From the NCBI GenBank assembly GCA_002269645.1, contig NIVC01002082.1, positions 1-64,000 on the forward strand: a stretch of DNA of 64,000 nt, in the 5' to 3' direction. The DNA is from Macrostomum lignano. Taxonomy: Eukaryota. Of the stretch, positions 1 to 63,220 are shown piece after piece. The notes under the pieces are model-generated. The model was not told where the DNA came from and searched no databases. It saw only the letters and a list, made by a program, of their open reading frames with translations. Made by a program: the position numbers and the translations under genes. Every line of letters starts with the position of its first letter. Position 1 is the first letter of the stretch.

Positions 1-247
1 CCAACGCAACTCCACAACCCCAAGACCAACCGCCCTCAACAGGAAAAGGAATTTCTGAAATCTACAAGCGAGTAGCGGTTCTTCTAGGAGCAGCAAAGAC
101 CGGAATGAAAGATGAAATAGAAAAGAATTTGTCAACATCCTGGACAAAATGATGGAAAAGAAGTATATTGACAAACGGGCGAGAGAGCTTCTGCTTTCGC
201 GTTCAACAAAAAATAATTTATTTCAAGTAAAAATGCCGATTACTTTT
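1..247 (+). CDS. C-terminal part of a Polinton-type ORF, one frameshift near 120
   Basis: Joining frames gives IYKRVAVLLGAAKTGMKDEIEK/EFVNILDKMMEKKYI, resembling the RLxLLxG..AGN...E...ILD.L motif I recall from Polinton ORFs. Confidence 0.45.
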
Positions 248-640
248 TGAGAAAGACGTGGACAAATACTATGACAAAGAGGAACTTAATCTCATTAAAC
301 GCGGATCTGGACTTTTCCCTGCAGGCCACTATCCAAGAAAAGAACGCTCTGGGAAGGCTTGCCGATTTGATCGCTCAGGGGGCCAAGATTTTAAGGTCAT
401 TGGAGAGAACAAAGAGAACATCAAGAACGTTGCCGAAGCGGCTGCAGTGTAGCCACAGCAGCCAAAAAGATAAAGGATACTGTAACACCTAAACAAGAGA
501 TTCAGCCTCCACTGCCCCGCTGGCTCCATTGGCCCCAAATCCAGACAGCAGTGTGGACCCTGCAGCTATGAGAAGATGAGGGCTAGCCATTAAAAAAGAA
601 GTGGTTTCAAATTTGACTAAAGGGTACTTTCCGAGGAGTA
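233..640 (+). CDS. Small frameshifted viral ORF with GxG motifs (possible virion core protein)
   Basis: ATG in A-rich context at 233; fragments KRGSGL, RSGK/GLADLIAQGAKI and ENKENIKNVAEAAA lie in alternating frames. Confidence 0.35.
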
Positions 641-641
641 C

Positions 642-802
642 AATGACACATCTAAGTCCCAAAATGACACATCTAAGTCCCAAAATGACACATCTAAGTC
701 CCGAAATGACACATCTAAGTCCCGAAAATGACACATTAAGTACCAAAATGACACATCTAAGTCCCAAAATGACACATCTAAGTCCCGAAATGACACATCT
801 AA
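642..802 (+). repeat. 21-bp tandem repeat, about 8 copies, AATGACACATCTAAGTCCC(A/G)A
   Basis: Directly visible; accounts for ORFs 601..834 and 489..767. Confidence 0.95.
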
Positions 803-839
803 ATTATTTATTATTTAAATTTTTTTCATCATAGAAAAA

Positions 840-1637
840 ATGGACTTTTCAAACGACTTCAATCCTCACTGGACGCGTAATCAGATTAAGTTTTCTCATC
901 ACGAGTCAATCCCGAGTCACTTCAGATGCATTGTTGTTGGTTCATCAGGTTCAGGTAAAACATTCAGAGTCTTTAACATGCTTCTTAGACCTGGCTTTAT
1001 CGACTATGACACTCTGCACATCTACTCTCCCACACTGTATCAAGATGAGTATAAATGCTGATTTCTGGATTGCAAAACAAACTGCACAAAGAGGACATTA
1101 TTGCATGTTTTAATAACCAAATGAGCCTTCCCAGTAACCCTGAAATTGTAGCTGCTGAATATGCAAAGCACCTCAAAGACAATGAAAAATGGCAGAACAT
1201 TAAAGTGTTCACCTATGGAGATCCACAGGCTGATCAAAGACCAAACTTCTACCCCAACCAGATGAGCTAGAAAAGGGGAGAAAGCATTTGATCGTTTTGA
1301 TGATTGTATGACAGGCCCACAGAAGCAGATAGAAAACTATTTTACAAGAGGGCGACATAACAATTGTAATGTAATTTACATTGCACAGAATTGCGTCGAG
1401 CTCCCGAACAAAACAATTCGTGGGAACTGCAATCTGATTCTCCTGTTTCCAACCATTCCACAGGACAGGTTAAAAAGATTTTACAATGAGGTCATTGCGC
1501 CTGCCTATTTCATAAATCCAACAAAAAACTCAAGCAGAAAGATTTCACAAGAGGAATTCGTTAATCTTTGCTATGACAAGTGGAATCAGCCTTACCAGTT
1601 TGTGATTATCAGCAAAGAAAAAAGAACTGTAATTTAA
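840..1637 (+). CDS. Polinton DNA-packaging ATPase (A32/FtsK-like), about 3 frameshifts
   Basis: Walker A CIVVGSSGSGKT; Walker B HLIVFDDCM restored by one T at about 1297; RGRHNN arginine-finger motif followed by VIYIAQN. Confidence 0.9.
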
Positions 1638-1653
1638 AATTTGCTATTAAAAG

Positions 1654-2469
1654 ATGTCGATAAACTTTGCAGGTGAATCCATTTCTGGCAACAGCGCTCT
1701 TACATCAGCTCAGATATCCATCCTTGACAGGCGATATATCAACAGCGACGAAAAGATCCCAGAGATCAAACTGAATAAAAACAGACTGAAAGCCCTAGAG
1801 CGCTCCATCACCATTGCAAATAAACATGGAAGATCTCAGGCTTAAAGTAGCTAGCAGAAGTTTGAAGTGATAAGCTTTATGTGCCGTTGTTAAACGCAAC
1901 TAATGAACTAAGGTCAGAAATAACTTCGATAGTCTCGCTAATCAACGGCTTGAGATCATCAGTTAATCTTCTGCGGAAATTCCATTGATAGACGGATGCG
2001 TATTCTCGAAGGAGGAGTTTTCACAAACACAGCTAAAGTAAATAATTTAGAAGAGTTCATGACTCGGTCAACAGCGTTGCATGATAGAATTAAAGAAAAC
2101 GTCGCAACCAACACAGTTAAAGTCAATAATTTAGAAGAGTTCATGACTCAGTCAACATCGTTGCATGATAGAATTAAAGAAAGTCTTGAAGCATTAAAGA
2201 GAAAGGATGTATCACACAGTAGCTATCTAAACGGAATGTATAGCTCTTGGGGTAAAATAATAAGGAGGCTTGATCGTCTGGAGAGAACACTCAATCTTCG
2301 TGATATTGCTATTGATGAAGCAGAATCTGCTGCTCGTCCGGTCATGTCTACAGATCGAGTAGAAGGAGCTCTGGACCCCGACGGAGTAATCCGGCACGCT
2401 CTCAAACGTCAGCCGCCCAGCCGCTGCCTGCTGGACTCGCGATCCTCCGGCGTCACGAGAGCCGCCTAG
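1654..2469 (+). CDS. Frameshifted coiled-coil-like viral protein with an internal 84-bp duplication
   Basis: ORFs 1654..1845 and 1996..2469 can be joined through intermediate frames; T(A/V)KVNNLEEFMTxSTxLHDRIKE occurs twice, 28 aa apart. Confidence 0.5.
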
Positions 2470-2562
2470 ACAACCGGCGGTGCAGATGGAATTATCAAAA
2501 AGAAAACAGATCTTTCAACCGGATAGTTTTATAATTTTTTTTATTTTTTCTAGAGAAAAAAA

Positions 2563-3333
2563 ATGGCCCAACAAAATTCTCTATACGATCAGTCTCAATA
2601 CGTTGAACCTAAAATACCGACAGCACCAAACTCAATGGCACCGAATTCGAACACACAAAACCTGGCACCGAATCTGAATGCACCCCAATATGAGCAACAA
2701 AAACTCTACCCCGTCATTACTTGTAACTCTCAGCAGTTTCGACTAGTGGAGATTCAAAAAATGCGTGATGATCTTGAAAAAAATATTTTCCACAACACAA
2801 AGAAAATTAAGCGCTATGACAACCACTGTAAATTTTTCGACTACAGCAATATGATTCTAGGATCTGTGTCTGTTCTATCTGGATCTGCTGCAGCTGTCTC
2901 AGTGTTGCCAGTCATCACAGCCCCAATCGCAATCCCACTCGGCTCTGTGGGTGCTGCATGTGGACTTATTTCAGCAATTACTGGAGCATTAGCGCGAAAC
3001 AGGCGAAAAAAACTAAAGCAGCTACAGGAGAAGCAAGTAAAAGAGAAAGGGGTGCACACTTCAATCATAGGGTACATTTCAAGGGCAATCGAGGATAAGT
3101 TCATTTCAGAGGATGAGTTCAAAACCATTCAGGATCTTTATGAACAATCAATTCGAATGAACTTGAACATGGTCGGTACTGATGACATGAGTCAGCTGAG
3201 AAATGAACTCGAGAAAGTTCTTCAACATTATGCGGAAAGAAAGTGGCGAAAAATTCGGCAAGAACGTAAGAAGGACGACGAGAAATGCACAATGAACCCC
3301 TATGAAACACAGCCAAGAATAATTTCCTTGTAG
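2563..3333 (+). CDS. Polinton membrane-associated protein (256 aa) with hydrophobic hairpin and ISEDEF motif
   Basis: LYP...FRL.EI motif, hydrophobic segment MILGSVSVLSG...ITGALA, basic RNRRKKLK and SRAIEDKFISEDEF; a pattern I recall from invertebrate Polintons. Confidence 0.75.
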   Translation: MAQQNSLYDQSQYVEPKIPTAPNSMAPNSNTQNLAPNLNAPQYEQQKLYPVITCNSQQFRLVEIQKMRDDLEKNIFHNTKKIKRYDNHCKFFDYSNMILGSVSVLSGSAAAVSVLPVITAPIAIPLGSVGAACGLISAITGALARNRRKKLKQLQEKQVKEKGVHTSIIGYISRAIEDKFISEDEFKTIQDLYEQSIRMNLNMVGTDDMSQLRNELEKVLQHYAERKWRKIRQERKKDDEKCTMNPYETQPRIISL

Positions 3334-3703
3334 GTCTTTCGTGTTTTTGGTCATTGCATACAAAACAGTCATGCACAGCTCACCGCAAATATCACTGCTA
3401 AGACCTTGGAGAATAAAGTCTGAGCGATAAATTTTTTTTATTATTTTTTCCCTTCATATAATTTCTTAGCTCTTCTGGTACTGCCGTCCCATAGCTATCG
3501 AAGTAATAACACTTGTGCTTGCGATCGGGATCAATCACCCAGCAAACCCAATGAGATCCTGGCTTATCGGTAGTGTCAAAGTTCATGATGCCGCATTCTT
3601 TTCTTAGAGGAAAATCAGGCAGAGTGTCTCTCATAAATATTCCTCTAAAGTTTGGGATTTCCAGTTCGTTAGCCAAATCTTCAAGAAAGTTATTTGTCGT
3701 CAT
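3300..3703 (-). CDS. Adenain-like cysteine protease, frameshifted near 3430 and 3340
   Basis: PNFRGIFMRDTLP, GSHW (His) and YFDSYG (Asp); QGLSSDICG (Cys codon 3385-3387) lies in the next frame. Confidence 0.9.
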
Positions 3704-3777
3704 TTTTTTATGAGGTTTATTAAACTTTCTCTTAAACCTAAACCTAAACTCCACCTCCTAAACCAAACCTCCTAAGC

Positions 3778-6700
3778 TTAATCTCCACCTCCTAAACCTA
3801 ATCTCCAGTGCCCGAACGGTAGACTGTTAATGTTGTCATCAAAAATGAATCTCTTGTTATCTGCACCTGACAGTCCAATCTTCTTTTGCTGAATTGTGTG
3901 AATAATATGGTTTTTAGATTGTAGCTTTGAGAACTCATGTGATGTCTTTTTGTTGCAATTCAAGGCGTCTCTGTATTCAGCTTCATTAATTTCCTTCCTA
4001 ACCACACGTTTCGGAATTCCCTTTGATTTTTTAATTGGGTCTGACGACTCACATTTTACAAAATAGGACTTTGCTCTCAACCCAATGAATTCAGTGATTA
4101 TGTCACCAGCAATCTCGTCCTTCATTTTCCCAATCACTTTCTTGTTAGTGGCGTCAAACACTTGATCGCCATTCTGTGTCCTGAAAGATTCATCATACTC
4201 AGACAAGTCAAACAATCTTTTTGCTGCAGCATGTCCTGATAAATGTCTTCTGTTTGAATGTCCATAATAAAACTGTCTGTGTCAGTGTACAAGAGTTTCA
4301 TTTTATCCTTGTACTGCTGCTTCATGCCATAGAAGAACTGGTACATCAGACGTTTTGATTCGTCGAGAACAGTGACACCTGTATAGATCGGCTTGCGCAG
4401 CGTCACCTTGGTTTTGTAAAATATGATCACACCTAAGTAGCTATTAAAGATATGGAGTTCTTTGAATGTTGGCTTTGACATATTTGCCTGAATAACAGCA
4501 GGCTCTGATGAGGTAACAAGTTTCAGGTTTGTTCTTTTCCGCTCATTCTCAAGAGTCTTGCCATAGACAGAGTTGTTGGCCAACTTAAAGAGGTTCTTGT
4601 CAAAGTCGTTGGTTGCTTTGGTCCTAAACTGGGTGTTCTTATCAATGTAGGGTTTCATCCACGCTTCCTCTGTAAATGTAAGAGCCCTGTGAACTTTGGT
4701 GACCCTGCAACCAAGTGAGATAAAATACTGAAGCAGTTTGTAATGGATTTTGTAACGTGTCTTGTTGTTTAGATTCTGTGTTAGTTTCTCTGTATGTTCT
4801 TTTTCTGTTCCTGACAGGTGCCAAGTTCCATTATTATCATTGGGAGTTTCGATTATTTTCGGGCACTTGATGTTCTCTGGGAAGGGTGGAAAGTCAGAGA
4901 AATAGTCGTGAAGCTCTGGTGGAATGTAAACATCAACCTCATAAATGGCAGCCAATGAAAAGTCCTTTGAATTCTGATGAGGGTAGCCATCGAAAATCTC
5001 TAACTGGAAGATCTTGACTCATCGCCCACCCGTAGAGATTATTAGCGTCCAAGTAAGTAATGTAGTTTGAGGGCTGCTCCTTATTGTAAGATTCAATGTA
5101 GGGATTGTTTGCTTTTGCATACCTGTTAACGCAAATTGAGATCCCCCTCGCTTTGACGATTCGACAAAATTGTACATGTCAATGTCTGTAAGAAGTTCAA
5201 TGTACCAATCTGGATCTTGATCCCATTTCATTTTAAGCAAAGATTCCCAGCTAGTGGCAGGCAGAGACACATAATGTGCTGGATCGAGGCCATATGCTGT
5301 GTACCAGGTGTATCTGAAGGTTTCAAACACATCGGCCAGCAGAAACACATCTGTGAAGAGGTAAAGCAGGTGATACTGGAAGAAGTTTTGACAATTAAAG
5401 TAATTATAGACATGCTTCGCGTGCTCATAGTCTTTGTCAGAGATTCCAGAGTCTGTTAGCTTTGAAAAGAACTTCTCCTGTGGTGGTAAACCTTCTTCAA
5501 ATACGTGATACCCAGTAATATTTTCATAGGGGTAGAAGCCTTTCTTTCTTAAAAGTTTAAATGATTCATCAGTGTTGTTAATTTTACTTGCAAACATCTT
5601 TGTATATGTACATTGTTCATCTTTTAGATTCTTGCTTAGTTCGTCTAGACTGGCAGCTAGAAATTGATATGAATCCTTCAGTCTTATTTTACCTGTACCC
5701 GAATTATCCTGTTTAATATCAACACACTTAAACTTCTCCTTGTTCTCTGCGATGCAGTCAAGGTGTATGTCTGGAATCATGCCGATTTTTTCAACTATTA
5801 AATGCATGTCATAGTTCTTTGCGTTGTGACAAAATATCGTTAGATCATGAATGTTCGATTTTAGCTTTAGATTACAGGTGTTATGCGCTGCACCTCTAAA
5901 TTTCCCAGTAAAGTGGCAGTGGTCCCTAACGGTGGGGTTTTTAATATTAGTGCAAGTTAAATGTTTCCTGCAGATGTGGCAATGAGTTGCTGATAGGAAA
6001 TTGCTTTCATCCTCCTCAGTCATCATTATTGGAACAGGTTGAAGGGTGCTAATCACTCTTTGCAACTCTAACATTCTGGCAATAAACTGCTCCACACACT
6101 GCTCTCCAAAGAAATAATTATACTCAACAAGTCCTTTTGTATTAATAAAGGCATATGCTACTGAATTGGGGACATGTTTTTGAGTTTGAGTTTGTTTTTG
6201 AGTTTGAGTTTGTTTTTGAGTTTGTTTTTGTGTTTCCGGCATGATTGAGCATTCGAAATCAGCATATACAACAAATGGGAGCTTCTCCATCTTGTGATAG
6301 TTCTTAAACCGGAGATACTTCTCTTCAGCTGAAGGAAGAGAGCAGTTTGTCGGGTGATCCTCGCATGATAATTCATGCTCTGTTAGTTTTTCAAAGCGTT
6401 CAGGTCCACTGTAATGCTTAAGGCACAAGCGGCAGATGGCAACAGCCTCGTGATGATTATTCAACTGCTTGTGAATGAGTCTTGAAAGATCTTTAATCCA
6501 AACATAGTGAGCCTCCTCTAGTAAATTACCAATCACTAGAAGATCCACTTCAGTCCGCCTTTTCCCCTCAGGATCTAAAACGTCTTTGCTACATCTGACC
6601 GGTTGAACTTTCTCAGTTTTTTCACTCCACTCAAAGACTGTGATTCTAATTTTGTTATTAAACACTTCTTCTAGCTTTGGGATCTGAGAATCGCCAAGCC

Positions 6701-7639
6701 TCCTTTGTCAAACCTGATTCCCTTCTTTTCGCATTCGATGAGATAGTAGTTGAAATAATTTTGATAATTTGAGGTTCTTTCGGGGTGGTGAGGGACACTA
6801 TCATAAAGAAGTGCAGAAAGAACTGCCCATAGAGCACAGCAATTGTCTTTATTTTTAACATTTATGCAAGCTTTTTTACCGGCTAGCTTATGCGGGAGCT
6901 CTATATAAGAGGAGGCTTTAAGTGGGTCATATTTCATGACCATGACAGTCGCTCTTTGAATCCCTCCCACGACCCATCCGGAACCTCTGGATGTAAACGC
7001 TTCAATTTTCTTAGTGACATCTTGAAGGAAAGGATCCAGTGTGTCAGTAGGGGTGAATGGCTTTGCCTTTGTTGTCATGTAATACTCGAGATGCTCAGTG
7101 GGTTTTGCAGGCATATAAAACGCAATCTTGAATGATATCTGTAGTTTAAAGGTCTTGCGTGTTTTGAGTGTGTGATCAACAACTGATTGGATGCTGTCTT
7201 TATAGTCGTAGATGTTTGCGGTGGTGCTGTTTATTGGGATTGTGTACTCTATGTAATGTTCTGTAAACTTCCTCTGTGCAAAATTAATCTCTTCAATGGC
7301 AAGCTCCGACTCTTTTAAATGGATTAATTGCTCTAATTTCTCTTGTTCCTGCTTATTTTGTGGGTACTTTGTTTTTTCACCAGTGAGAGTTTCGTATTTG
7401 TTAACTAAGTTGCGACTCCTCTCTTGGTGTTCCTTTGCAGGATTTTTTATAGGCGCATACTGGTTGGATTCTAATTGATTGATGATTTCCAACTGTTTTT
7501 CATAGCTTCCCAGGTGACCAGGGTCGGTGTTGAACTTTTGTTTGTATGCTTCTCTTAGTGAATTACTTTTGTCTTGAAATGAGACGCCTTTTGAAAAATA
7601 TTTGTTAACTAAATCTCTTGCTGGATTGGCTTTTGGCAT
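3778..7639 (-). CDS. Protein-primed family B DNA polymerase, about 1,290 aa, at least 4 frameshifts
   Basis: GSGW N-terminal motif; zinc-finger/endonuclease VII-like DHCHFTGKFRGAAHNTCN; Exo motifs YADFE, HNAKNYD, YLFTDVFLLAD; polymerase motifs YLDANNLYGWAM, KLANNSVYGK, YTDTDS, RAKSY, KSKG. Confidence 0.97.
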
Positions 7640-7764
7640 TTTTTTTCTCTAAAATAAAAAAAATTTTTGAGGGTGACCACCCTGATAGAAAAGTTGAACT
7701 GTTTCTACATCCTATCAGTAGTATTAGGTTTATGAAGCTGGATAAAGTGGGGTTTTAAACCTCA

Positions 7765-8220
7765 TCACATGCGCATTATTGTAAACCCAGCATTGTGCAG
7801 TGTCATGATGGCTTTGACAATGTCAGACTTGCTTACAGAATTTTCATGCTCAAAATCATCATGATCATCACAATCGGGGCAGCCCTCTCCTGCCTTAATT
7901 GTTATACCTTTGTCTCTTGCAATCTTTTGCAATTCTAGCTGGTGGGCTCTATCATTCCCAGCTTTAACAGCAGTTGCTACACCTCCAGCTACACCACCTG
8001 CGGCACTCACAGCGCCTGCAATGATCGGAATAAGAGCTGCTAATGGTAGGATTCCTCCTGACTTTTCATCTGTGATGCTGTGTCTTTGCTCATTACACTG
8101 AAGTATTTGCTGCGTGGGATCGATTTTTACTTTGATACCTTTAATTGATATAAGACCTGGTTTCTTTGATTCAATGATTTTATTGAGTTTATTGATGGTT
8201 CTGGTTTCAATCTTTGTCAT
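7765..8220 (-). CDS. Adenovirus pX-like virion core protein
   Basis: GGILPLAALIPIIAGAVSAAGGVAGGVA closely resembles the adenovirus pX C-terminus as recalled (GGILPLLIPLIAAAIGAVPGIASVA). Confidence 0.8.
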   Translation of the reverse strand: MTKIETRTINKLNKIIESKKPGLISIKGIKVKIDPTQQILQCNEQRHSITDEKSGGILPLAALIPIIAGAVSAAGGVAGGVATAVKAGNDRAHQLELQKIARDKGITIKAGEGCPDCDDHDDFEHENSVSKSDIVKAIMTLHNAGFTIMRM

Positions 8221-8236
8221 TTTTTATTTTAATATT

Positions 8237-9274
8237 TTAATTAATTTCCGTGTCAGCTGGTATCACTAGGAGTTCAGCTCTAGTGAATGACCGCGTGGGG
8301 GATTTAGGGTTAAAGGTTTGAGATAAAAAGTAATAGTCTCCAGAGTCGGAGGTAAAATGTCTGTCTATTTTATGTACATCAAGGCTGAAGTATGGATCTG
8401 TAGCTCTTCTTTTGGTGTCTTTCTCTAGCTCTCCAGGTAGATATAAAAAGCGTAGAAACTCAGAGTTTGTCAGTATGTATGGTGATTCAACTCCTGGAAG
8501 CTTAGGGTAGTTCGAGGTGTGTTTTGTGTTGTGTGTGTTGTGTGGGGTTGTCGTGTTGTTGTCTGTTTTATGAGATGACTTAAGTTCGACAGTGTCTTGT
8601 TTAATTGCATGGGACGGTTTCAATCCAGTCATACGTGTGACTTCATTGTTCAGTTGCTCTATAACAGTGGGGAGCCGGTCTGTCCATTTTGAATAGTACT
8701 GACCACTTTTTAGTTTCAGCTCCTCAGCTGTCTGCTTAGTGAATAGCCTCTTGGCTAGAGTTAGATTGAATCTCTCAACGTACGCTTGGTCTCTGTGCAA
8801 GTTTGTTCTGCCATAGCGAATCTCTGTATTGTGCTTTTCCATAAGGGATTTCACTGCACCCATGAATTCCTTACCCGGGTCGGTCATGAACATTTCAGGG
8901 TAACTAAGGGGTGAGTTTTTATAAATATCTTGCAGTGCGCTGGCAACAACCTCTGACTTCTTCGTCTTGAGTGGGCGAGCTTCCTTATATCTGGAAGCAA
9001 TGTCAATAATTGTAAGAGCATACTTGTAACCTGAGTCATTGGGGAGAAACAATAAGTCTGCTTGGTGCGCTTCATTAGGTTTATAGATGCTAAAGTGAGG
9101 TCTCGTAAATTGAACAGGTGGGAAATAGACTTGGTAGACTGCTTGCTTAGAGAGCCACTTTTCTACTTTAGCTTTTGGTTCCTTACTTAGTTCTGCGAGT
9201 TTGGTGACTGCATTTTTTCCTACAAAGAATCCTTTGTCGCTGTAGTAGAGTTTTTTAAGTTTCTGATCTGTCAT
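8237..9274 (-). CDS. Retroviral-type (rve) DDE integrase, intact, 345 aa from MTDQ
   Basis: QADL (D), MTDPGKEF (D), VERFN (E); C-terminal RRATDPYFS; no chromodomain seen. Confidence 0.95.
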   Translation of the reverse strand: MTDQKLKKLYYSDKGFFVGKNAVTKLAELSKEPKAKVEKWLSKQAVYQVYFPPVQFTRPHFSIYKPNEAHQADLLFLPNDSGYKYALTIIDIASRYKEARPLKTKKSEVVASALQDIYKNSPLSYPEMFMTDPGKEFMGAVKSLMEKHNTEIRYGRTNLHRDQAYVERFNLTLAKRLFTKQTAEELKLKSGQYYSKWTDRLPTVIEQLNNEVTRMTGLKPSHAIKQDTVELKSSHKTDNNTTTPHNTHNTKHTSNYPKLPGVESPYILTNSEFLRFLYLPGELEKDTKRRATDPYFSLDVHKIDRHFTSDSGDYYFLSQTFNPKSPTRSFTRAELLVIPADTEIN

Positions 9275-9304
9275 TTTTTTAAAAAGAAAATTTAAAATAA
9301 AATA

Positions 9305-9784
9305 ATGCAACGCTCTGGTGGTAAGTTAGATTCACATGGACTGATAGAAAAGCTTCCTCATCCAAACAAAGGCTGGACACTTCCCGGCTATAAATATTGC
9401 GGGCCTTTGAATCCACTTGAAATACAGTTAGATAAAAACAATAATCCACATCCTGGGCATGAGCCTGTGAACGAGCTAGACTCTGTCTGCATGTGGCACG
9501 ATGTTAAATATAGAGATTTTCCTGAGGAGAAGAATCGCTGGGACAAAGAAATGCTTAAGAGACTAGACAATATAGGGGCTTCAAGCGGATTTCGTGAGTC
9601 GATCGCTCGGAAGCTAGTTAAAGCTGTTATTTTTAGTAAAACAAAGTTGGGGTTGGGGGTTGAAGGCGAGGGCGGGTGCACAGGGAGAGAGGGCTGGTGC
9701 ACGGGAGCAGGGTTTATTTTGTGTGCTCCAAACAATGAATTGGGAAGACTGTTGAAAGAGCTGGGGGTTGAGAGAGGCGCTTGA
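9305..9784 (+). CDS. Parvovirus VP1u-type phospholipase A2
   Basis: LPGYKYCGP calcium loop; PVNELD..C..HD..Y catalytic motif; D(K)EML; K.KLGLG. Confidence 0.9.
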   Translation: MQRSGGKLDSHGLIEKLPHPNKGWTLPGYKYCGPLNPLEIQLDKNNNPHPGHEPVNELDSVCMWHDVKYRDFPEEKNRWDKEMLKRLDNIGASSGFRESIARKLVKAVIFSKTKLGLGVEGEGGCTGREGWCTGAGFILCAPNNELGRLLKELGVERGA

Positions 9785-10109
9785 GTCGGGAAAGATTATT
9801 CGCAGCCAAGCGCAACAGCTGCATTTTGAAAAGGGGTGGGGTAACTGCTATTTGCTGAGGGAGCGCAGCTTTTGCGAATGTACAAGTTCCACGCGTGCTT
9901 TCCTTTCCTTTCCTTTCTTTCCTTTGTATTGCGCACGCCAAATAACGAATTAGAAAGACTGCTGAACAGTTTACATTGATAAACAACTGAAAGACTGAAG
10001 CGACAGATTATAGTCGCTATATAGTTTATTAGTTTATTATAGTTTTTCATGTGGTAAGCAACGTGGCAACAACAGAGCATGCAGCAGAAGACAGAATGCC
10101 TATCTTAGG

Positions 10110-10419
10110 TAAATAATAATAATAATTGATTACACCTGCCCAATGGGCAGATGTGCAACCGACAGCTCAGCCGCAGCTATTGCGCGGCGCATCTGAAGGC
10201 TGCGTGCGTCTGTTCAGTCCAAGGACTGGGGGGTCGCCACACACACCCTCAATTACCCCAGCTAATGCTGGCACCCATTTTACAGCTGCGTGAACTGAAG
10301 CAATGCAGAGTTAAGTGCCTTGCTCAAAGACACAGATTGTTGCAGTGGGATCGGGAATCGAACCCTCAACCTTCATTCAACTAGTGAGTCCGACGCCCTA
10401 ACCACTAGGCTACAACCCC
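10110..10419 (-). mobile_element. tRNA-derived CORE-type SINE inserted in the Polinton
   Basis: Minus strand: A box TAGCCTAGTGGTTAGG, B box GGTTCGATTCCC, CORE-like TTGAGCAAGGCACTTAAC...CTGTAAAATGGG, (TTA)n tail; homologous to 62916..63220. Confidence 0.88.
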
Positions 10420-10448
10420 GTATGTGCAGGGTCTTAACTATGCAACAA

Positions 10449-10455
10449 TATAAAA
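10449..10455 (+). promoter_or_regulatory. TATA box upstream of the hairpin array
   Basis: TATAAAA(G), about 135 bp before the first palindrome. Confidence 0.4.
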
Positions 10456-10589
10456 GGTTTCAGGGTGAGCGCCTGCTTTTTCTCCAGCCCTTCTCTCACC
10501 CGTCTTGCCCTACCGCCTCTCATTCCAAGCCTGTCCTCTGGGTGCCTCTCTCTCTTCGCAACTAGCTCTACGCTCTCCTAGTCAAACAG

Positions 10590-11628
10590 CCACCTCAGAA
10601 AATGAAACCGCTGGTTTCAAATTTTGAGGTGGGTGATCTGAGTTCTGCACTGCTTCTCTAGCCTCCGCAACTAGCTCTACGCTCTCCCGAGCTCATTCTA
10701 TTTTTAGTCAAACATAACACTAGCGATCTCGCGCTGGGGGTAGAGGGGCGCCTGGGAATTTTGAGTCTCCCGTTGTACTGAAATCTCCTTCCCCTTGAGC
10801 TCCTCTCCCTTTCCCTTCCCCAACAGTCCGGTCCAGAGCACTGGGCTCTCTTTGCACAGGGGCGCCGCGCCACCTCAGAAAATGAAACCGCTGGTTTCAA
10901 ATTTTGAGGTGGGTGATCTGAGTTCTGCACTGCTTCTCTAGCCTCCGCAACTAGCTCTACGCTCTCCCGAGCTTAGTCAAACAGCCACCTCAGAAAATGA
11001 AACCGCTGGTTTCAAATTTTGAGGTGGGTCTACACTGCTGCGCTATCCAGTTCTCACCCGCCCTGCCACTCACTGCATGCAGTCCGCGCATTCCGCCACA
11101 AGTCCCCCCCTTCTCTCTCCACCCACCCTCCCTCTGCAATTCACTTCTGTGCAGTGCAGCGCCAAAGCCAAAAAAGAGAATTGCAGAGGGTTGAGGGTTG
11201 AGCCGGGCGGGAGGGGTCTTTCGTTTTCTAGCCTCCACAACTAGCCGCTCCGTTTTCTTCTACACTCTCCCGAGCTTAGTCAAACAACCACCTCAGAAAA
11301 TGAAACCGCTGGTTTCAAATTTTGAGGTGGGTGATCTCTTCTACGCTCTCCCAACGCATGGTATGGGTTTTATTTTTAGAACTTACGTCTACACTCTACA
11401 AGGTACAACCTTCTGGGTGATCCCTCCGTTTTCTTCTACGCTCTCCTAGTCAAACAGCCACCTCAGAAAATGAAACCGTTGGTTTCAAATTTTGAGGTGG
11501 GTGATCTGAGTTCTGCACTGCTTCCAGCAGAAACATTTTTCTACACTGTCCCAAGCAAATTTGCTATTTTAATCAGACACCCACCTCAGAAAATGAAACC
11601 AGTGGTTTCAAAATTTGAGGTTGGTGTC
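10590..11628. repeat. Six dispersed 43-bp imperfect palindromes with mosaic spacers
   Basis: CCACCTCAGAAAATGAAACC-NNN-GGTTTCAAATTTTGAGGTGG at 10590, 10870, 10985, 11288, 11458 and (variant) 11581. Confidence 0.95.
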
Positions 11629-11712
11629 AACATTAGTAACTATCCAAGGATAACTTGCTATTATTGTAGCTTCATGAGTTGCTAAATAAACAATAGATAG
11701 GTAATTTAAAAG

Positions 11713-12336
11713 TTAAAACAACAAGCCTTCGTCCACTTCCTGTTGCAGCATCGCAAGGGCCTCTGGCAAGTATGCAATCATCGACTTCAGCTTGTGCAGG
11801 GACATTGCAGATCTTTGTAGCACCGGATATTTCTCAGCTTGGTCAGCCAATTTCATCAGAAAGTTGGTCCACTGGCTGGTGAACGGTGCACGTCTTTTCA
11901 GCTCGTTGAACTGTTCCTTACTGAGAACCCGCTCCATTCTCAGAAAGATCCTGCCGAGCTGTAGGCCGTTTGCAAAGCCATGCTTACCATACCGTTCAAC
12001 TAGCTTATGAAGGTTGGCAATCTGTACAAGCACTGCGTCGATCGTAAATGTTCCCTGCATAAATTCTTCTAGAGAATGCACTGGAACAGGCTCACTGTTG
12101 GTCTTGTAGGCCATGCGCAACTCGTCCAGAGCCTTGCTGATTTGTGATTGTTTGTCGGCAGTTTTCGCTAGCCGACCACTGATAGTTGGCTTCACGATGG
12201 GTGACCGAGCAATTGCATTATATTTATCGGCCCAAACATTCCAATTGTCAAGATCTTTACTAGAAAAAACCGCCTTGATGAAATTCTCCAGATTTTCGAT
12301 GTAAACGTTGTCGCCTGCTTGCATTTCAGCATCCAT
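11713..12336 (-). CDS. Polinton accessory protein, 207 aa, unknown function
   Basis: Intact ORF; GCCATGG Kozak context; upstream TATA; predicted helical. Confidence 0.75.
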   Translation of the reverse strand: MDAEMQAGDNVYIENLENFIKAVFSSKDLDNWNVWADKYNAIARSPIVKPTISGRLAKTADKQSQISKALDELRMAYKTNSEPVPVHSLEEFMQGTFTIDAVLVQIANLHKLVERYGKHGFANGLQLGRIFLRMERVLSKEQFNELKRRAPFTSQWTNFLMKLADQAEKYPVLQRSAMSLHKLKSMIAYLPEALAMLQQEVDEGLLF

Positions 12337-12453
12337 GGCAAGATCCAGAGATTAAGCTAGTCAAAAATAAGAAGTTGCTGGCTCAGCGAGTTGAGGCGGG
12401 GCGAGGCGAGGCGGAGCAGGCAGGGTGAGGCGAGGGGCGGTGTGAATCGGCTG

Positions 12454-12533
12454 TATATATACCATTGGTGTGGGCTCGGGAATCCACGGATTCTCTTTTT
12501 GTTCTAGAATTTTCTAGAATTCGAATTCTAGAA
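12454..12533 (-). promoter_or_regulatory. Heat-shock-type promoter (HSE + CCAAT + TATA) for ORF 11713..12336
   Basis: gTTCtaGAAttTTCtaGAAt at 12501-12520 is a perfect 4-unit HSE, overlapped by the 22-bp palindrome 12512-12533; CCAAT at 12464-12468; TATATATA at 12454-12461. Confidence 0.7.
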
Positions 12534-12885
12534 GGGAAACCCGCAGATTTTCTACTTATAGCCAGTATTTTCTATTAATGGTTGATTGGGGTTGCCTGGG
12601 AAAGATCTAGGAAGACTGCTGAAAGAGCTGGGGGTTGAGAAGGCTGGGGGTTTAAACAAGGAACTAAATGGGCATTTCTGAAGCTAGGCAAGGGATCTTC
12701 TGAGCTAGTTAGGGTTGAGCTGGGCAAAAGCTTTTTTCTCTATGCTGCACACGCCGCTCGCGCTATGACAAGAAACAGCTGCCATACCCATTCCGCTATC
12801 ACCCACCCGCCACACAGCAAAATACCATGCGTAAAAATATCTATTAATGCAGTCTTAAAGTCTTAAAGCGTATCGTAACGACATT

Positions 12886-13125
12886 CTACAATTGCTTAAT
12901 GATTTCTGCAAAGTTATAATAGCTGTCGTAATCTTTTACATAGGTTACTCCATACTTATGAAACCAATGTCTTTGGAGAGCTAGATTAATATTAGGGACA
13001 TTGATATGAACGTCGGGCCAATATTTTCTCATGTATTCGCTGCATTCAAGTTTGCATCGGTACTTGGATTTGTAATTAGGCTCGTGCGCTTTGTAATAAG
13101 AACCTGGAGAGACAACTGGAAACAT
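12886..13125 (-). CDS. Small hypothetical viral ORF, 79 aa
   Basis: Open ORF with the A-rich pre-ATG context (AATAAAATG) typical of this element. Confidence 0.45.
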   Translation of the reverse strand: MFPVVSPGSYYKAHEPNYKSKYRCKLECSEYMRKYWPDVHINVPNINLALQRHWFHKYGVTYVKDYDSYYNFAEIIKQL

Positions 13126-13315
13126 TTTATTGAGAATTTATTATTTTTTTCAAAGGGTAAGGACCCTGCGCTGATAATTTAAAGTCTTAGGGATCTGGTA
13201 GCACGTTGCAAATTGAATGTGGGAAGAAGAATGCAGATTATTTTCTTATTGTTTCGAAGATGCTATGGGTGGATGTCGGTGTCAATGAGCATAACAGGTG
13301 TCAGTGGACACCTGC

Positions 13316-13535
13316 TCTGATTCTGTCAGGGATAATATGGATGGATTTAATACGATTATGTTCGAAGTTTTCGGAGCAAGTGCGACCCCTCCACTTTTTC
13401 ATGATTCTGTCAGGGATAATATGGATGGATTTAATGGGATTATGGAGGACGTTTTGTGAGCGAGTGCGACCCCCCTTTTTTTCTGATTCTGTCAGGGATA
13501 ATATGGATGGATTTAATGGGATTATGGAGGACGTG
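13316..13535 (+). repeat. Three copies of an 82-84-bp unit (GATTCTGTCAGGGATAATATGGATGGATTTAAT...)
   Basis: Core starts at 13319, 13403 and 13485; lies within ORF 13206..13649, whose coding status is doubtful. Confidence 0.9.
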
Positions 13536-13779
13536 AAAAATTTTGTCCCAAAAGCCCCCTCATGCCTTCTACTCTGGGAGAAGTGCGTGCAGTTGATGGG
13601 CAATTATGTCGAGAAAGCTTCCCTCCCTGATGATGATGAGGCATACTAACTGTCGTAACTTCTTGACCTGTTGCACCATGCACAAATTCATTGTAACTCT
13701 ATGGTCGACCTTTTTGTGTGTTTCTATCCATAACTTTGTTATAGGTTGTGTTTTTTGTTAAATATTTGCAGTCAAATTA

Positions 13780-13879
13780 AAGCTGATATGTTCCGCTTTC
13801 CAACAACACCAAACTATTTTCAAGCATACAGTAAAGCTATACAAGCAAAAGTATCATTACTTTTTGGACACCCCTCGTA
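13780..13879. mobile_element. Right end of a Tc1/mariner-like non-autonomous element (remnant)
   Basis: TTTTTGGACACCCCTCG followed by TA resembles Tc1-type ends; partner end not found. Confidence 0.35.
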
Positions 13880-14737
13880 CATGTATACCTAATATATGAT
13901 AGAGCCAGTTTTTTAAACATTCAATGGTTATACATTAATAATTAAAGATTAATTAGCAAATTAGCAAATTAGCAAATTAGCTGTGGTATTAATATTATAT
14001 ACAAGTAATATAAGCTTATATATTGCATAGCAAATATCAAAATTTTGAAAGCTTAAACTTTTAAATTTTTAGTTTCAAAGTTAACTGTGGCATTTAGAGC
14101 AGCTGAAACTAGAAAGTCTACTATGCAATACAAGCAATGTAAGCAACTGACATATGATTGATAAGAGCATCTATAGTCCTATGTGTGCTAATTCAACTGC
14201 CACAATCTTAGAACATTTGGCCTCATTTAACTCAGTTACTTTGGCAATTGAAAAATGGCCATAGGCAATTCTATCAAGTCTTTTAAGCTCAGGTGATAAA
14301 GTAACTAGAATAAATGGCAATGATATCACTATTAAGTGTATTTGATTGATGCTAATTAAAAATACTACATTTTTCTTATTCCAAGCTGACCTAATAGCTA
14401 GAGTTGATGGCTCATGGCTACAGTGTACCTATCTTACCAAAATCAACTACCAAGGCATATTTCAAGGCTTACAATTCTGAAACATTGCTAAGTTTGTTGG
14501 TCAATAATACTCAATATCAATACCAAATTATATCACTGATTGTGAGATGCTGATGCCTTGGCCAATGATGAACAAGTAGCAATTAACAACAGGGTATGGA
14601 TGGTTAGGCCATGGCCTACTAGAACTGTTCTACCAACTATTTAAATAATGAAAATTAAATAAATACTTTGTATGCCAAACCAACAATTTATCTATTGTGT
14701 AATTATTAGTAATAATTTTTGCATTATACATATTATG

Positions 14738-26779: not shown

Positions 26780-34607
<7,828 letters not shown>

Positions 34608-54953: not shown

Positions 54954-55700
54954 TCAGTAGATCCGGAAGCTGGGGCCCATTGTGGACTTGATGTACAGAG
55001 CCCGAACATTCTGCCAGTTCTTTTTCAGCAGCGACACCAAGAAGTTGATTGACAAGGTGATGTTGTTGATGAGGTCACCAGAGCTCATCTCCTCGTGCCC
55101 AATGGCCACGGCAAGGCACAGCACCTTCTTCATCTGGAACTTAATGGTGGCCTTGACCTCCTCCACCTTGCCAACCAGAGAGTCGCCGTGAGTCACCATG
55201 GTGGGGAACTTGCCAGCCTTGTTGAGGCCGGGGCCCAGCACACGGGGAATCTGCTTGATGATGGAGTCCGAAGCCAGGAAGGCGTCGTACTGCTTGGCCA
55301 GCTTCTTCACCAGCTTTTTGTTCTTGTTCAGCTTCTTCAGGGCCTCGATGTCCATGCAGGCCAGTCCGTTGGCTGTGGCCTCGTCGCAGTGCTGCTGGTC
55401 GCCAAGGACGCAAACCTTCATCTTCGGCTTGGGCACGTTCTTCAGCCTGCATGGCAACCGGGGGTTACAGTATTGTTTATCTTAGCAACAGAAAACTGAA
55501 TATTTTTTTCATGTTAATTTGTGATAAAAAATCTCTGCTCACTTGATGGTACCGCTGAATCGCTTGTCCTTCTGCGGGTCGTAGTTCTTCAGAGCGATCT
55601 GCAGCTCGATGGTCTGCTTGAACTTGCGCTGCTTGTCCTTGATGCCCTTGAGCACGCCCTCCACCGACTCGGTGAGAATCTCTCGAGACAGCTTAGACAT
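54954..55700 (-). CDS. RPL10A: 60S ribosomal protein L10a, copy 2; join(55543..55700,54954..55446), 216 aa
   Basis: Same exon structure as copy 1; 96-nt intron; 3 amino-acid differences. Confidence 0.97.
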
Positions 55701-55735: not shown

Positions 55736-55866
55736 GCAGGATGAACTGAAGCAATGCAGAGTTAAGTGTCCTGCTAATGGACACAAATTGTTCCTTGTGT
55801 CAAGGATCGAACCCCCGACCTTTTATTCGTGAGTCCGACACGCTTTAACCACTAGGCTACTATCCC
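55736..55866 (-). mobile_element. 3'-truncated CORE-SINE (tRNA head plus part of CORE)
   Basis: A box TAGCCTAGTGGTTAAAGCG, B box GGTTCGATCC, CACTTAACTCTGCATTGCTTCAGTTCA shared with the other copies. Confidence 0.82.
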
Positions 55867-56690: not shown

Positions 56691-59600
56691 TCCACCAAAG
56701 ACGCCGCCGCCGCCAGCAGAAGCGAAGTCGCCGAAGGTCATACCGCCGCCAGCCTGCATGGCGCTGCTGAACCCGCCGAAACCTCCGCTGCTGCCGCCTC
56801 CACTGCCAAACAGACCGCCGCCTCCAAGCGAAGCTGGCGACGTCGACGAAGGCGAAGTGCCTGCGAATGGCGAGGCGAATTGAGGAGCCGAATTGAACAG
56901 CCCACCAGCAGATACACCGCCGCCGCCACCTCCACTGAAGAGGCCACCACCGCCACCTCCGCCTCCGCTGCCAAATAAGCCGCCAGAAGTTGAAGCCGCT
57001 GCTCCCAGGACGCTGGTGCCCGAGAACAGGCTTCCGCCGCCGCTTCCGGTTTTGGCGCCAGGGCTTGCAAACGGATTAGCGGCGCTGGGTTGACTTGATG
57101 CGCCTGAGGATTTTATTATTGTTTTCTTATAAATAAAGTAATAGTTGAACATGTATTACTACTATTGGCATATGATTTCTTACAGAAACTATTCCAATTA
57201 TACAAGTGGTATTAAATGATTTACTAATCTATCTACTTTACTACCCACCGTATCTACTCTATAACCTACCGTATCTACATGCATCATATCTACAAGTATC
57301 ATATTTACTATGCGACCTACCGTATCTACACTGTTACCTACCGTATCTACACTGTTACCTACCGTATCTACACTGTTACCTACCGTATCTACACTGTTAC
57401 CTACCGTATCTACTTTACGACCCATCGTATCTACTTTACGACCCATCGTATCTACTATATGATCTACCGTATCCACTCTATGACCTACTATATCTACTAT
57501 ATGACCTACCGTATATACTCTGTGACCTACCGTATCTACTCTATGACCTACCGTATCTACTATGTGACCTACCGACTACCGTATATACTCTGTGACCTAC
57601 CGTATCTACTCTATGACCTATCGTATCTACTCTATGATCTACTATAACTACTATATGACCTACCGTATCTACTCTATGACCTACTTGACCTACTATATCT
57701 ACTATATGACCTACCTTATCTACTATACGACCTACCTTATTTGTATATGACATGCCGTATCTACTTTGTGACCTACCGCATCTACTCTCTGACCTACCGC
57801 ATCTACTCTCTGACCTACCGTATCTACTATCTACCTATCTATTGTACGATGCAACACATCTGTGCTATGACCCACATGTACACTATAATTTATACAATAC
57901 TATATCTACACCTCCGCTCAATCAGTCACACTTACCCCAGTAACTAATGACATGCCTAACACCCTTTAAAATTTGACTCACCAAACATTAATAAAAGTGT
58001 AATATACAACCTGTACTCAGACAGTTAGACTCCTATCCTAGGCTGCCCTCCCCTAAACCTCAATCAAGGTCAATTGCAAGAAAACAGCAGTAGAAGTTTC
58101 ACCTGCAGCGGTCGAGGAGAACAGCCCTCCGCCGCCGCCGCCGCCGCCGCCACCACCGAAGACGCTGCCACCGGCTCCGGGACCCGTTGACGATGAGCCG
58201 AACAAGCCACCTCCTCCGCCGCCGCCGCCGCCGCCGCCGCCGCCAGTAGACAGTGACGAGAACAGTCCACCTACAGACGACAGACTAGACTGTCCCGCAG
58301 CTGCCGCGGTGGTCGTTGCTGTTGACGATGAAAACAGACCGCCGCCGCCACCAGCGCCTGCGGCTTGCGAACCGGAGAACAAGCCACCGGTGCTGCTGCC
58401 AAACAGGCCACCACCAGTATTGGGAGCACCTGTTGTAGCTGTTGTGCCAGCAAACAGGCCACCACCAGTATTGGGAGCACCTGTTGTAGCTGTTGTGCCA
58501 GCAAACAGGCCACCACCAGTATTGAGAGCACCTGTTGTAGTTGTTGTGCCAGAAAACAGGCCACCACCAGTATTGGGAGCACCTGTTGTAGTTGTTGTGC
58601 CAGAAAACAGGCCACCACCAGTATTGGGAGCACCTGTTGTAGTTGTTATGCCAGAAAACAGGCCACCACCAGTATTGGGAGCACCTGTTGTAGCTGTTGT
58701 GCCAGAAAACAGGCCACCGGTGCTGGAGGTACTGGTTGAAGCAGCTGCAGTACCAAAAAGACCACCAGTCTTTATAGCACCGGCTGGAGGTGTTGAAGTT
58801 GCAAACAGACCACCGGTGCTGGTGGTACCGGTTGGAGCTGTAGAACTAGCAAATAGACCACCGGTGCTGGTGGTACCGGTTGGAGCTGTAGAACTAGCAA
58901 ATAGACCACCGGTGCTGGTGGTACCGGCTGGAGCTGTAGAACTAGCAAATAGACCACCGGTGCTGGTGGTACCGGCTGGAGCTGTAGAACTAGCAAATAG
59001 ACCACCGGTGCAGGTGGTACCGGTTGGAGCTGTAGAACTTGCAAATAGACCACCGGTGCTGGTGGTACCGGTTGGAGCCGTAGAACTAGCAAATAGACCA
59101 CCGGTGCTGGCGGTACCGGCTGGAGCTGTAGAACTTGCAAATAGACCACCGGTGCTGGCGGTTGTAGCAGCTGCTGAAGTTCCAAATAAACCACCGGTTC
59201 CAGGCGCAGCTGATGAACTGGTTGTTTTTCCAGAAAACAGGCCAGCAGTGCTTGAAGTGGCATTGGTAGCAGAAGTAGTTGACGAAGAAACAATGCCTGC
59301 GGTGGGTGTAACTGCTGAAGTAACAGTTGAAGTATAAAGCAGGCCAACAGTTCCTACCGGAGATTTGCTAGCACCTGTTGTAGCTGCAGGTGAAATCGCG
59401 TCGGTTTTAGCTGCACCTGTTGAAACCGCCGGCGCAGCAAATAGACCGGTGCCAGGTGCTGCTGCAGCTTTAGAGACTACAGCACCGGTGCTAGTTGTGA
59501 CCGGTGTAGACAACAGGCCACCAGTGACAGGTGCCGCTGCAGCTGTTGGCTTAGATACTACAGCACCGGTGCTAGCTGTAACCGGTGTAGACAACAGGCC

Positions 59601-62600: not shown

Positions 62601-62732
62601 TGTGCAGGCTACAAGGCTAGTAGCAGTCGGTCTAGCCACCACATCGTTGGGATAACTGCTGCCAGCTCCCAGGTCTAGATCGATACGGCCCAGTGACAGG
62701 CATTGCAAATCGTCAATATCTTTGGTTTGCAT
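56610..62732 (-). CDS. NUP214: Nucleoporin NUP214/Nup159 orthologue; join(58103..62732,56610..57103), 1,707 aa
   Basis: N-terminal beta-propeller (WNP, CWSPRGKQL, YVPQWSLLIAA); coiled coil VYQTIRTNYRIIQQQ; GGLF/FG-type repeat tail; phase-1 GT-AG intron. A short upstream exon is possible. Confidence 0.9.
57237..57840 (+). repeat. 21-bp minisatellite CTACCGTATCTACTCTATGAC in the NUP214 intron
   Basis: Directly visible. Confidence 0.95.
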
Positions 62733-62915: not shown

Positions 62916-63220
62916 GGAAGTTGTAACCCAGTGCTTAGAGGGTCAGACTTACGACTTGAAGGAAGGAAATTCGATTCCCGATCCAATTAAAACAGTTTGT
63001 ATCCTTGAGCATGAGCAAGATACTAATTTTTCTCTATTGCTTCAGTTCACCCAGCTGTAAAATGGGTGCCAGCATTAGCTGGGGCAATTGAGGGTGCGTG
63101 TGGCGACCCCCCCCCATTCCTTAGACTCAACAGCTACACACAGCCTTCAGATGTACCATGCAATGTGGCTGAGCTGTCAGTTGCACATCTGCTCATTAGG
63201 GGCAGGTGTAATCAATTTTT
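62916..63220 (+). mobile_element. Full-length CORE-SINE copy, diverged
   Basis: Colinear with the reverse complement of 10110..10419 (TTCGATTCCCGATCC, CAGCTGTAAAATGGGTGCCAGCATTAGCTGGGG, GCAGGTGTAATCAATT). Confidence 0.88.

Follow-up and report, generated by a model that had tools for sequence, protein, structure and literature searches.

The window analysed here, a stretch of 64,000 nucleotides of Macrostomum lignano DNA, opens with the right part of a Polinton/adintovirus-type element, which profile searches trace from position 1 to about 13550. The window begins inside this element, with the capsid genes and the left end lying beyond the 64-kb stretch and 13.5 kb of the element in view. The genes recognized are an rve integrase, a protein-primed PolB, fragments of an adenain-like protease and of an A32-like ATPase, a pX-like gene and a PLA2-like gene, all of them shared with adintoviruses and Polintons (Mavericks); the ATPase and the PolB are broken into pieces. 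Matches to both PF00665 (rve) and PF03175 (PolB) place the element in this group, and among its accessory, ATPase and protease genes PF08398 and PF05829 scored above cut-off while PF04665 and PF00770 scored below it, on fragments. PLA2 genes are typical of Alpha-class modules (PMC8502044). The landmarks that surround the region of interest are as follows.

8237 to 9274, minus strand: rve integrase (PF00665, E 4e-9)
9305 to 9784, plus strand: PLA2-like gene (PF08398, E 5e-14), which marks the element as adintovirus-type
9743 to 9778, plus strand: a direct repeat of 36 nt (left copy), located in the 3′-terminal part of the PLA2-like ORF
10116 to 10419, minus strand: tRNA-headed host SINE (Rfam tRNA at 10346-10419), pointing away from the palindrome array and not part of its unit
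12610 to 12644, plus strand: right copy of the 36-nt direct repeat, which reads as a remnant of the same PLA2-like peptide
13316 to 13534, no strand: 84-bp tandem repeat, adjoining the presumed right terminus

The right end of the element is placed only roughly, at about 13535-13573, after the 84-bp repeats. Next to it, at about 13535-13880, lies what we take from its motif to be a mariner-like 3′ remnant with a terminal repeat, for which Pfam and PDB searches returned no match. The SINE, whose end is 29 nt from the TATA box described below, has relatives in the host part of the window at 62920-63225 (78%) and 55742-55866; the middle of this family presumably resembles the CORE domain of MIR-type SINEs, and an ARAGORN scan found no tRNA gene. 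Other features of the window include a retrotransposon gag with a zinc knuckle (PF03732, PF00098) in a GC-rich island at 32557-34607, many unrelated minisatellite arrays at 28388-57837 (units of 20, 54, 33, 18, 22 and 21 bp), a ribosomal protein L1/L10a exon at 54954-55421, and an FG-nucleoporin-like host gene at 58053-62732. The last is a single frame of 1559 codons with internal coding repeats of 48-81 bp. Of it, 420 residues were searched and proved 98% identical to a protein of Macrostomum lignano, which identifies the host as this flatworm or a very near relative.

Between the PLA2-like gene and the right end of the element lies a stretch of 1.2 kb that contains an array of palindromes. 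The initial annotation had described six 43-bp imperfect palindromes 115-303 bp apart, the sixth with a 5-bp stem extension giving a 53-nt hairpin, in a stretch without a credible ORF that is framed by a TATA box at 10449 and an AATAAA at 11685, with spacers made of shared modules and unique inserts. This anatomy holds throughout. All six copies were located, with starts at 10590, 10870, 10985, 11288, 11458 and 11581 (spacings of 280, 115, 303, 170 and 123); both framing motifs are present; no ATG ORF exceeds 71 aa, and the one of that length begins within a palindrome; and 331 of 1023 spacer bases fall in shared modules, the remainder being eight unique stretches of 27-176 nt and shorter gaps. 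The SINE, a seventh hairpin and a gene for a protein of 207 aa that faces the array had been overlooked. The features of the stretch are these.

10449 to 10456, plus strand: TATA box (TATAWAWR) heading the unit; 1-13573 holds 10 such sites, counting both strands
10590 to 10632, no strand: palindrome copy 1, with 20-bp arms and a 3-nt loop
10870 to 10912, no strand: palindrome copy 2, which opens the basic 115-bp repeat unit (10870-10984)
10985 to 11027, no strand: palindrome copy 3
11113 to 11213, no strand: seventh hairpin, which has a perfect stem of 13 bp and no sequence relation to the palindromes
11288 to 11330, no strand: palindrome copy 4
11369 to 11374, minus strand: AATAAA, which may serve the 207-aa gene as its distal poly(A) signal
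11458 to 11500, no strand: palindrome copy 5, with one loop change
11568 to 11573, minus strand: ATTAAA, the first AATAAA/ATTAAA after the 207-aa gene and just past copy 6, a candidate poly(A) signal
11576 to 11628, no strand: palindrome copy 6 with its 5-bp extension (53 nt), the most diverged copy, with four differences
11685 to 11690, plus strand: AATAAA closing the unit, the first plus-strand AATAAA/ATTAAA after the PLA2-like gene (after 9784)

Copies 1-5 form 17 of 20 Watson-Crick pairs and one G-U pair (plus strand), and copy 6 forms 15 of 20 and adds the extension, which is perfect and directed outward. Each arm has boxes of 8 bp on the outside and 7 bp on the inside, separated by a 5-bp A/T spacer into which all three mismatches fall, and each palindrome carries two TCA-N5-TGA dyads 22 bp apart, that is, two helical turns. 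The 20-nt left arm has 11 matches at up to three mismatches in the 64 kb, all within 10590-11600, a result reached by none of 100 shuffles. No palindrome copy was found outside the array in the window, including its 50 kb of host DNA; searches for relatives of the array gave no match in GTDB genomes, none in plasmids, and in phages eight chance matches of 24 nt (E 0.6, query 10540-10720). Partial likenesses occur in the element itself. At 642-802, upstream of the ATPase, 7.7 copies of a 21-bp repeat have a unit that shares 9 of 10 bases with the palindrome left arm; a 13-nt match to the right arm at 602 is marginal (8 of 300 simulations), as is a shared 9-nt word within the leader of the 207-aa gene (99 of 3000).

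The framing of the array is unusual. The stretch is GC-rich in its body (51% GC) with edges of 22% and 29%, and the TATA box sits in the 22% edge. No plus-strand AATAAA or ATTAAA occurs inside the unit. Of 20000 simulations per strand, 8-10 had both a TATAWAWR in the 150 nt that precede the first copy and an AATAAA in the 100 nt that follow the last, the sizes of these windows having been set after the motifs had been seen; at the array's own composition none of 20000 did. Taken singly, the TATA box would arise by chance with a probability of 0.6-1.8%.

The 207-aa gene lies on the other strand and points into the array, with a promoter region that carries a heat-shock motif.

11713 to 12336, minus strand: intact 207-aa gene, of no known family
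12454 to 12461, minus strand: TATA box preceding the 207-aa gene, at a distance of 118 nt
12501 to 12535, no strand: heat-shock element (HSE) of four perfect alternating nGAAn units (12502-12519) and further units, 40 nt upstream of the TATA box

The gene therefore has at least three alternating nGAAn units upstream of a TATA box, the pattern by which heat-shock promoters were recognized here, and the same pattern was used for M. lignano in the part of PMC12801592 available. The HSE at 12502-12519 is the only perfect four-unit HSE in the 64 kb (1 of 300 simulations). CCAAT-like boxes occur near the HSE and TATA box at 12454-12535. The leader of the 207-aa gene is GC-rich, whereas the core gene starts at 840, 2563, 3703, 7639, 8220, 9274 and 9305 have a T-run followed by an A-run leader ending in the ATG, and two of these leaders, at 2533-2565 and 7637-7665, match each other to 88% when one is inverted; such leaders are a possible element-specific late promoter. 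A separate idea, a likeness of the two leaders, was discarded, with equally good simulations in 83-530 of 1000.

In M. lignano, according to the available parts of PMC12801592, four of six HSE-bearing LTR families were induced more than 250-fold by heat and two were not, and mutation of the HSEs abolished the heat response of the one promoter assayed. Among the heat-changed transcripts of the same study, one with both Pfam domains of the element's PolB fragment rose (log2FC 2.8, FDR 0.010, base mean 4.4) and another PolB-type transcript fell (log2FC -1.6), and in the table seen none carried PLA2, ATPase, protease or pX models (PMC12801592). Heat induction of the 207-aa gene stays a prediction, because none of the transcripts in that table could be tied to the locus. 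The likeness to the HSE-bearing LTR retrotransposons of M. lignano, and also to ONSEN and Helitron1_CE, lies in a canonical HSE just upstream of a TATA box; the HSE here differs in preceding an accessory gene of a DNA-virus-like element, with induction predicted only. In the sequence, a canonical heat-shock promoter on a Polinton accessory gene is arguably the firmest new point of the locus.

The protein itself appears all-helical, with a basic core (residues 120-190, pI 10.4) and an acidic C-terminal tail, in a model with pLDDT 75; the single-sequence fold was poor (pLDDT 45), and prediction of a homodimer scored 0.13 against a mark of 0.32, which counts neither for nor against a dimer. Its homologs are two sequences of 46% and 40% identity and one in M. 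lignano. The search of representative sequences gave six matches, of which four were used and two, multi-stretch matches in very long proteins, were left out. A word search found no relative among 212 candidates, none of 16 pattern matches in GTDB was confirmed, and tblastn against phages and plasmids gave nothing below E 0.6. Comparison with Pfam, PHROGs, NCBIfam and PDB sequences gave nothing significant, and none of the five family members had a Pfam match. Structural leads are weak: Spo0J/ParB (Z 5.6, rmsd 4.8, 99 aligned) and Raf1 (Z 5.5, rmsd 4.7, 95 aligned), with no match at Z 8 among 48161 chains and none at E 0.001 in Foldseek. In the Atlas, 11 of 30 matches fell in the DUF3102 set and 8 of 30 in Translat_reg (RNA-binding), with low family agreement flagged. 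A presumed resemblance to DUF3102 fared poorly in a profile test, where the 207-aa protein scored within shuffled controls against six Mu-like phage proteins, distant members only; the five of these control proteins that were scanned all match DUF3102, three of them above cut-off. In B3/BcepMu-type Mu-like phages, the DUF3102 gene lies just upstream of the transposase gene and is directly adjacent to it in five of six loci (L001, L004-L008). A helix-turn-helix assignment of the modelled 207-aa protein is weak.

The array, the 207-aa gene and its promoter are bracketed by the two copies of the 36-nt direct repeat, which are 94% identical. Because 12586-12690 holds a second, remnant version of the PLA2-like 3′ end, the layout suggests that 9780-12585 was acquired as a cassette. 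Within it, the array has a recent history. Copies 1-4 are identical over all 43 nt, copy 5 differs at one position and copy 6 at four; copies 1 and 2 share a 105-bp exact match that includes flank, and copies 2 to 3 define the 115-bp unit. By these repeats the array is a recent local expansion of the 115-bp unit with unique inserts, since copies 1-4 are identical and their flanks are shared, and the conserved stems therefore reflect mostly common descent and give little evidence of selection. The earlier description of conserved stems with a varying loop stands in that the stems are alike, but the loop is identical in four of six copies, and the stem conservation is mostly recent duplication. 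Covariation had been proposed as a check, and among the six copies, where its power is almost nil, none of 20 pairs covaries: 16 never vary and four depart by mismatch only. The copies show five differences in total, three of them in the 3-nt loop (binomial p ~0.003) and two in the stem, both of which break pairs. Flank homology often stops 0-7 nt from the palindrome edge, and partial palindromes are absent. Together, the loop bias and the ending of flank homology at palindrome edges suggest constraint on the sequence, although hairpin-driven template switching without selection could also end the homology there.

When folded, windows with a full palindrome have a mean z of -4.5 on the plus strand and -3.4 on the minus strand, with the plus strand better in 10 of 11 overlapping windows. 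The 16 spacer windows average a z of about 0, and 1 of 43 background windows reaches -3. Copy 6 keeps its stability through the extension despite two lost pairs (-29.5 vs -29.3 kcal/mol). The seventh hairpin has z of -4.5 (plus) and -3.7 (minus), and none of 200 shuffles was as stable on either strand. It is closer than the palindromes to a pri-miRNA, with Rfam miRNA scores far below gathering. A pri-miRNA hairpin has a stem of about 33-35 bp and a loop of at least 10 nt; the palindromes, with stems of 20-25 bp and loops of 3 nt, were rejected as such. An Rfam scan of the unit reported no family at its threshold, with miRNA scores again far below gathering, and no match to a spliced-leader RNA was found. 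Spliced mini-exons were likewise set aside: a donor-like site occurs in five palindromes, but the acceptors before palindromes were matched by 6-42% of control positions. Plus-strand splice acceptors outnumber those of the minus strand 6 to 1, by a weight table that may not fit this host.

The reading that we tentatively prefer from these sequence features is that the stretch encodes a Pol II non-coding RNA that runs towards the putatively heat-inducible gene, overlaps its 3′ end and displays repeated stem-loops. Beginning with the TATA box (10449) and closing with the AATAAA (11685), a separate Pol II unit would yield a capped, polyadenylated plus-strand transcript about 1.2 kb long, directed head-on at the 207-aa gene. 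The transcript's six near-identical 20-bp stem-loops on pyrimidine-rich linkers may serve as repeated docking sites for one protein, either a host dsRNA-binding factor or the 207-aa protein. Its 3′ end would overlap the mRNA of the 207-aa gene by about 120-320 nt and might damp that gene, so that the two would form a quiet-state RNA set against a stress-induced activator. The 115-bp unit was probably copied locally by template switching at hairpins during strand-displacement replication.

Several observations argue for this RNA: the framing is rare in simulations, the edges are AT-rich, the unit lacks an internal plus-strand poly(A) signal, the hairpins stand in unstructured linkers, and the first minus-strand poly(A) signals of the 207-aa gene fall inside the array. 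As the seventh hairpin is unrelated in sequence, it points to structure rather than one DNA motif. The stronger folding of palindrome windows on the plus strand, the loop bias, the preserved stability of copy 6 and the HSE-driven mobile elements of this host (PMC12801592) speak for it too. Against it stand the 0 of 20 covarying pairs, the plus-strand folding advantage, which comes down to a single G-U pair copied six times, and the whole-unit fold, in which arms pair between copies and not all hairpins stay local; in addition, two of the six HSE-bearing families covered above were not heat-induced (PMC12801592). The AATAAA at 11685 needs no new unit, because it is the first plus-strand signal after the PLA2-like gene and lies in an AT-rich spacer. 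Upstream promoter elements of this copy may be lost, because the SINE inserted 29 nt before the TATA box.

The initial annotation had proposed a viral non-coding RNA and compared it to adenovirus VA RNA. The first part stays a candidate through the improbable framing, tempered by the missing covariation; the comparison fails. Both are ORF-free, stem-rich sequences in adenovirus-related lineages, but the unit here has no Pol III B box on either strand, 15 (plus) and 10 (minus) runs of four or more T, a length of 1.2 kb, Pol II signals and no Rfam match. By its promoter boxes and T runs, a VA-like Pol III RNA is rejected. One lone A-box-like match lies in the array region, on the minus strand, and the only tRNA-like head is that of the SINE, which points away. 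Another parallel is the HSV-1 LAT, a herpesvirus latency transcript antisense to the immediate-early gene ICP0: here too a putative non-coding Pol II unit converges on a candidate activator gene and overlaps its 3′ end. The two differ in that they have no sequence relation, and in that the array has repeated identical hairpins and its transcript is putative.

A possible competitor, to which we give slightly less weight, takes the array as DNA. As in baculovirus hrs, the palindromes would bind a dimeric protein and the array would act as an enhancer and/or a replication or tethering site, with the adjacent, putatively heat-induced 207-aa protein as the simplest candidate binder. In baculovirus hrs a 64-bp unit that includes an imperfect palindrome of 24 bp is repeated 3-8 times, and the regions act as origin and enhancer (available text of PMC4535591); the palindrome must be intact and is bound by IE-1 (available text of PMC2834656). 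The likeness lies in several imperfect palindromes embedded in short direct repeats in an intergenic position. A DNA-binding role would also fit arm mismatches confined to the 5-bp A/T spacer and TCA-N5-TGA dyads spaced by two helical turns. The copies of one direct repeat enclose the array, gene and promoter, as if these travelled together, and the neighbouring protein has a basic helical core, an acidic tail and the weak Spo0J/ParB, Raf1 and DUF3102 leads. However, those leads did not reach Z 8 or E 0.001, the DUF3102 profile test stayed within shuffled controls, and the Atlas also offered RNA-binding families (8 of 30 Translat_reg). The array differs from hrs in its 43-bp rather than 24-30-bp palindromes, its GC-richness, its TATA/AATAAA frame and the lack of an IE-1 homolog, and any activity of the hr kind is putative. 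The enhancer proposal of the initial annotation fits in anatomy, but only one array was seen in 13.5 kb of the element, whereas hrs are dispersed at 7-9 sites, and the TATA box and seventh hairpin are left unexplained. The RNA and DNA readings are not mutually exclusive.

That the array is a neutral by-product, a hairpin-forming sequence that multiplied through slippage or template switching without being selected for any function, is unlikely. The identity of copies 1-4 and the conservation of flanks as well as stems (the 105-bp exact match) agree with it, as do the other local repeats of the element (21-bp at 642-802, 84-bp at 2026 and 13316), the broken ATPase and PolB and the absence of covariation. 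It accounts poorly for flank homology that ends 0-7 nt from palindrome edges without partial palindromes, for the 39 of 43 nt that copy 6 retains amid unrelated flanks, for the loop bias (p ~0.003) and for the framing signals. Less probable again is an untranslated tail of a neighbouring mRNA whose hairpins control stability or 3′-end formation, either of the PLA2-like mRNA reading through to 11685 or of the 207-aa mRNA ending at 11573/11374. The signal at 11685 is indeed the first on the plus strand after 9784, and copy 6 follows the stop of the 207-aa gene but precedes that gene's first poly(A) signal. Yet the former would require a 1.9-kb tail across the SINE with the TATA box owed to chance (0.6-1.8%), and the latter leaves copies 1-4 unexplained for a minus-strand mRNA.

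Host IRF sites, forming an immune-responsive enhancer or decoy, are a quite improbable explanation. The ISRE core GAAANNGAAA that the initial annotation noted in each left arm is there in six of six, and once more at 11219, and 0.5% of random 43-mers carry GAAANNGAAA. The supplement of PMC12801592, as far as available, shows that M. lignano expresses homologs of IRF (PF00605), Mx and viperin, so a host IRF transcript exists. But the six matches are one event copied, only one arm matches, the 43-bp symmetry is unexplained, 10 further GAAANNGAAA matches lie elsewhere in the window, and this is one motif among many that could be noticed; flatworm IRF specificity may also differ from the ISRE consensus used, and in planarians the available text of PMC13563047 reports no clear IRF3 homolog. 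Finally, a dispersed host MITE or a repeat inside a terminal inverted repeat, raised by the initial annotation against its own proposal, is the least probable of all: the palindromic shape, the SINE inserted nearby and the 52-nt palindromes in terminal inverted repeats of protist virophages and PLVs (available text of 10.64898/2026.07.28.741278) would suit it, but there is no copy in the window's 50 kb of host DNA, the flanks are common to copies, none of the six has a target-site duplication of more than 2 nt, and an intact gene and a distance of about 1.9-3.0 kb separate the array from the presumed end, which makes terminal repeats of 100-1500 bp, as given for Polintons in the text seen of 10.1101/2023.08.22.554363, unlikely by distance. 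The roughly 50-nt palindromes of the related Halocafeteria virophage/PLV elements are, in the part of that source available, terminal and beside target-site duplications, and the array here is internal and six-fold (10.64898/2026.07.28.741278).

Taking the preferred RNA and its neighbouring gene together, one may picture a two-part stress switch at the right end of the element, in which a host-HSF-driven immediate-early gene is paired with a convergent array read by its product, be it as RNA or as DNA, and the array's transcript restrains the gene until heat shock; as a complete scheme this is speculative and probably not correct in full. On the evidence of this single locus, the array is a real, non-random and apparently undescribed feature, and the view that suits it best is that it makes up one half of a candidate regulatory module, placed where this flatworm Polinton ends. 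The internal palindrome array and the HSE-driven gene set this element apart from the adintoviruses and Polintons it otherwise resembles. In the available portions of PMC8502044, PMC8097293, PMC11131425, 10.64898/2026.06.19.733378 and 10.1101/2023.08.22.554363 a search for palindromes, hairpins or both found no mention, and in 10.64898/2026.10.13.758929, itself seen in part, a figure legend indicates that some related genomes have palindromic repeats and small arrays of repeats. Neither an internal palindrome array nor an HSE promoter in an animal Polinton was found in the literature searched, as far as its texts were available and with Repbase/Dfam, subscription papers and bioRxiv supplements outside its scope; that literature also held no description of a latency/reactivation circuit for integrated animal Polintons.

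The locus bears on how integrated animal Polintons, which to our knowledge encode no RNA polymerase, control their genes and on what wakes them, a field in which the papers searched say little on non-coding DNA. What it provides is a tangible candidate for a control region, an HSE-driven gene and a facing array, and its host can be made transgenic and has heat-shock RNA-seq in print (PMC12801592). If neither the RNA nor the DNA reading is true, what is left is a repeat that expanded locally, and the heat-shock promoter alone stays notable. If the DNA reading is true, an hr-like enhancer and its reader would be added; if the RNA reading is true, the virus lineage would gain a latency-type non-coding RNA. 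Should the stress switch hold, it would provide a latency/reactivation circuit for integrated Polintons in animals.
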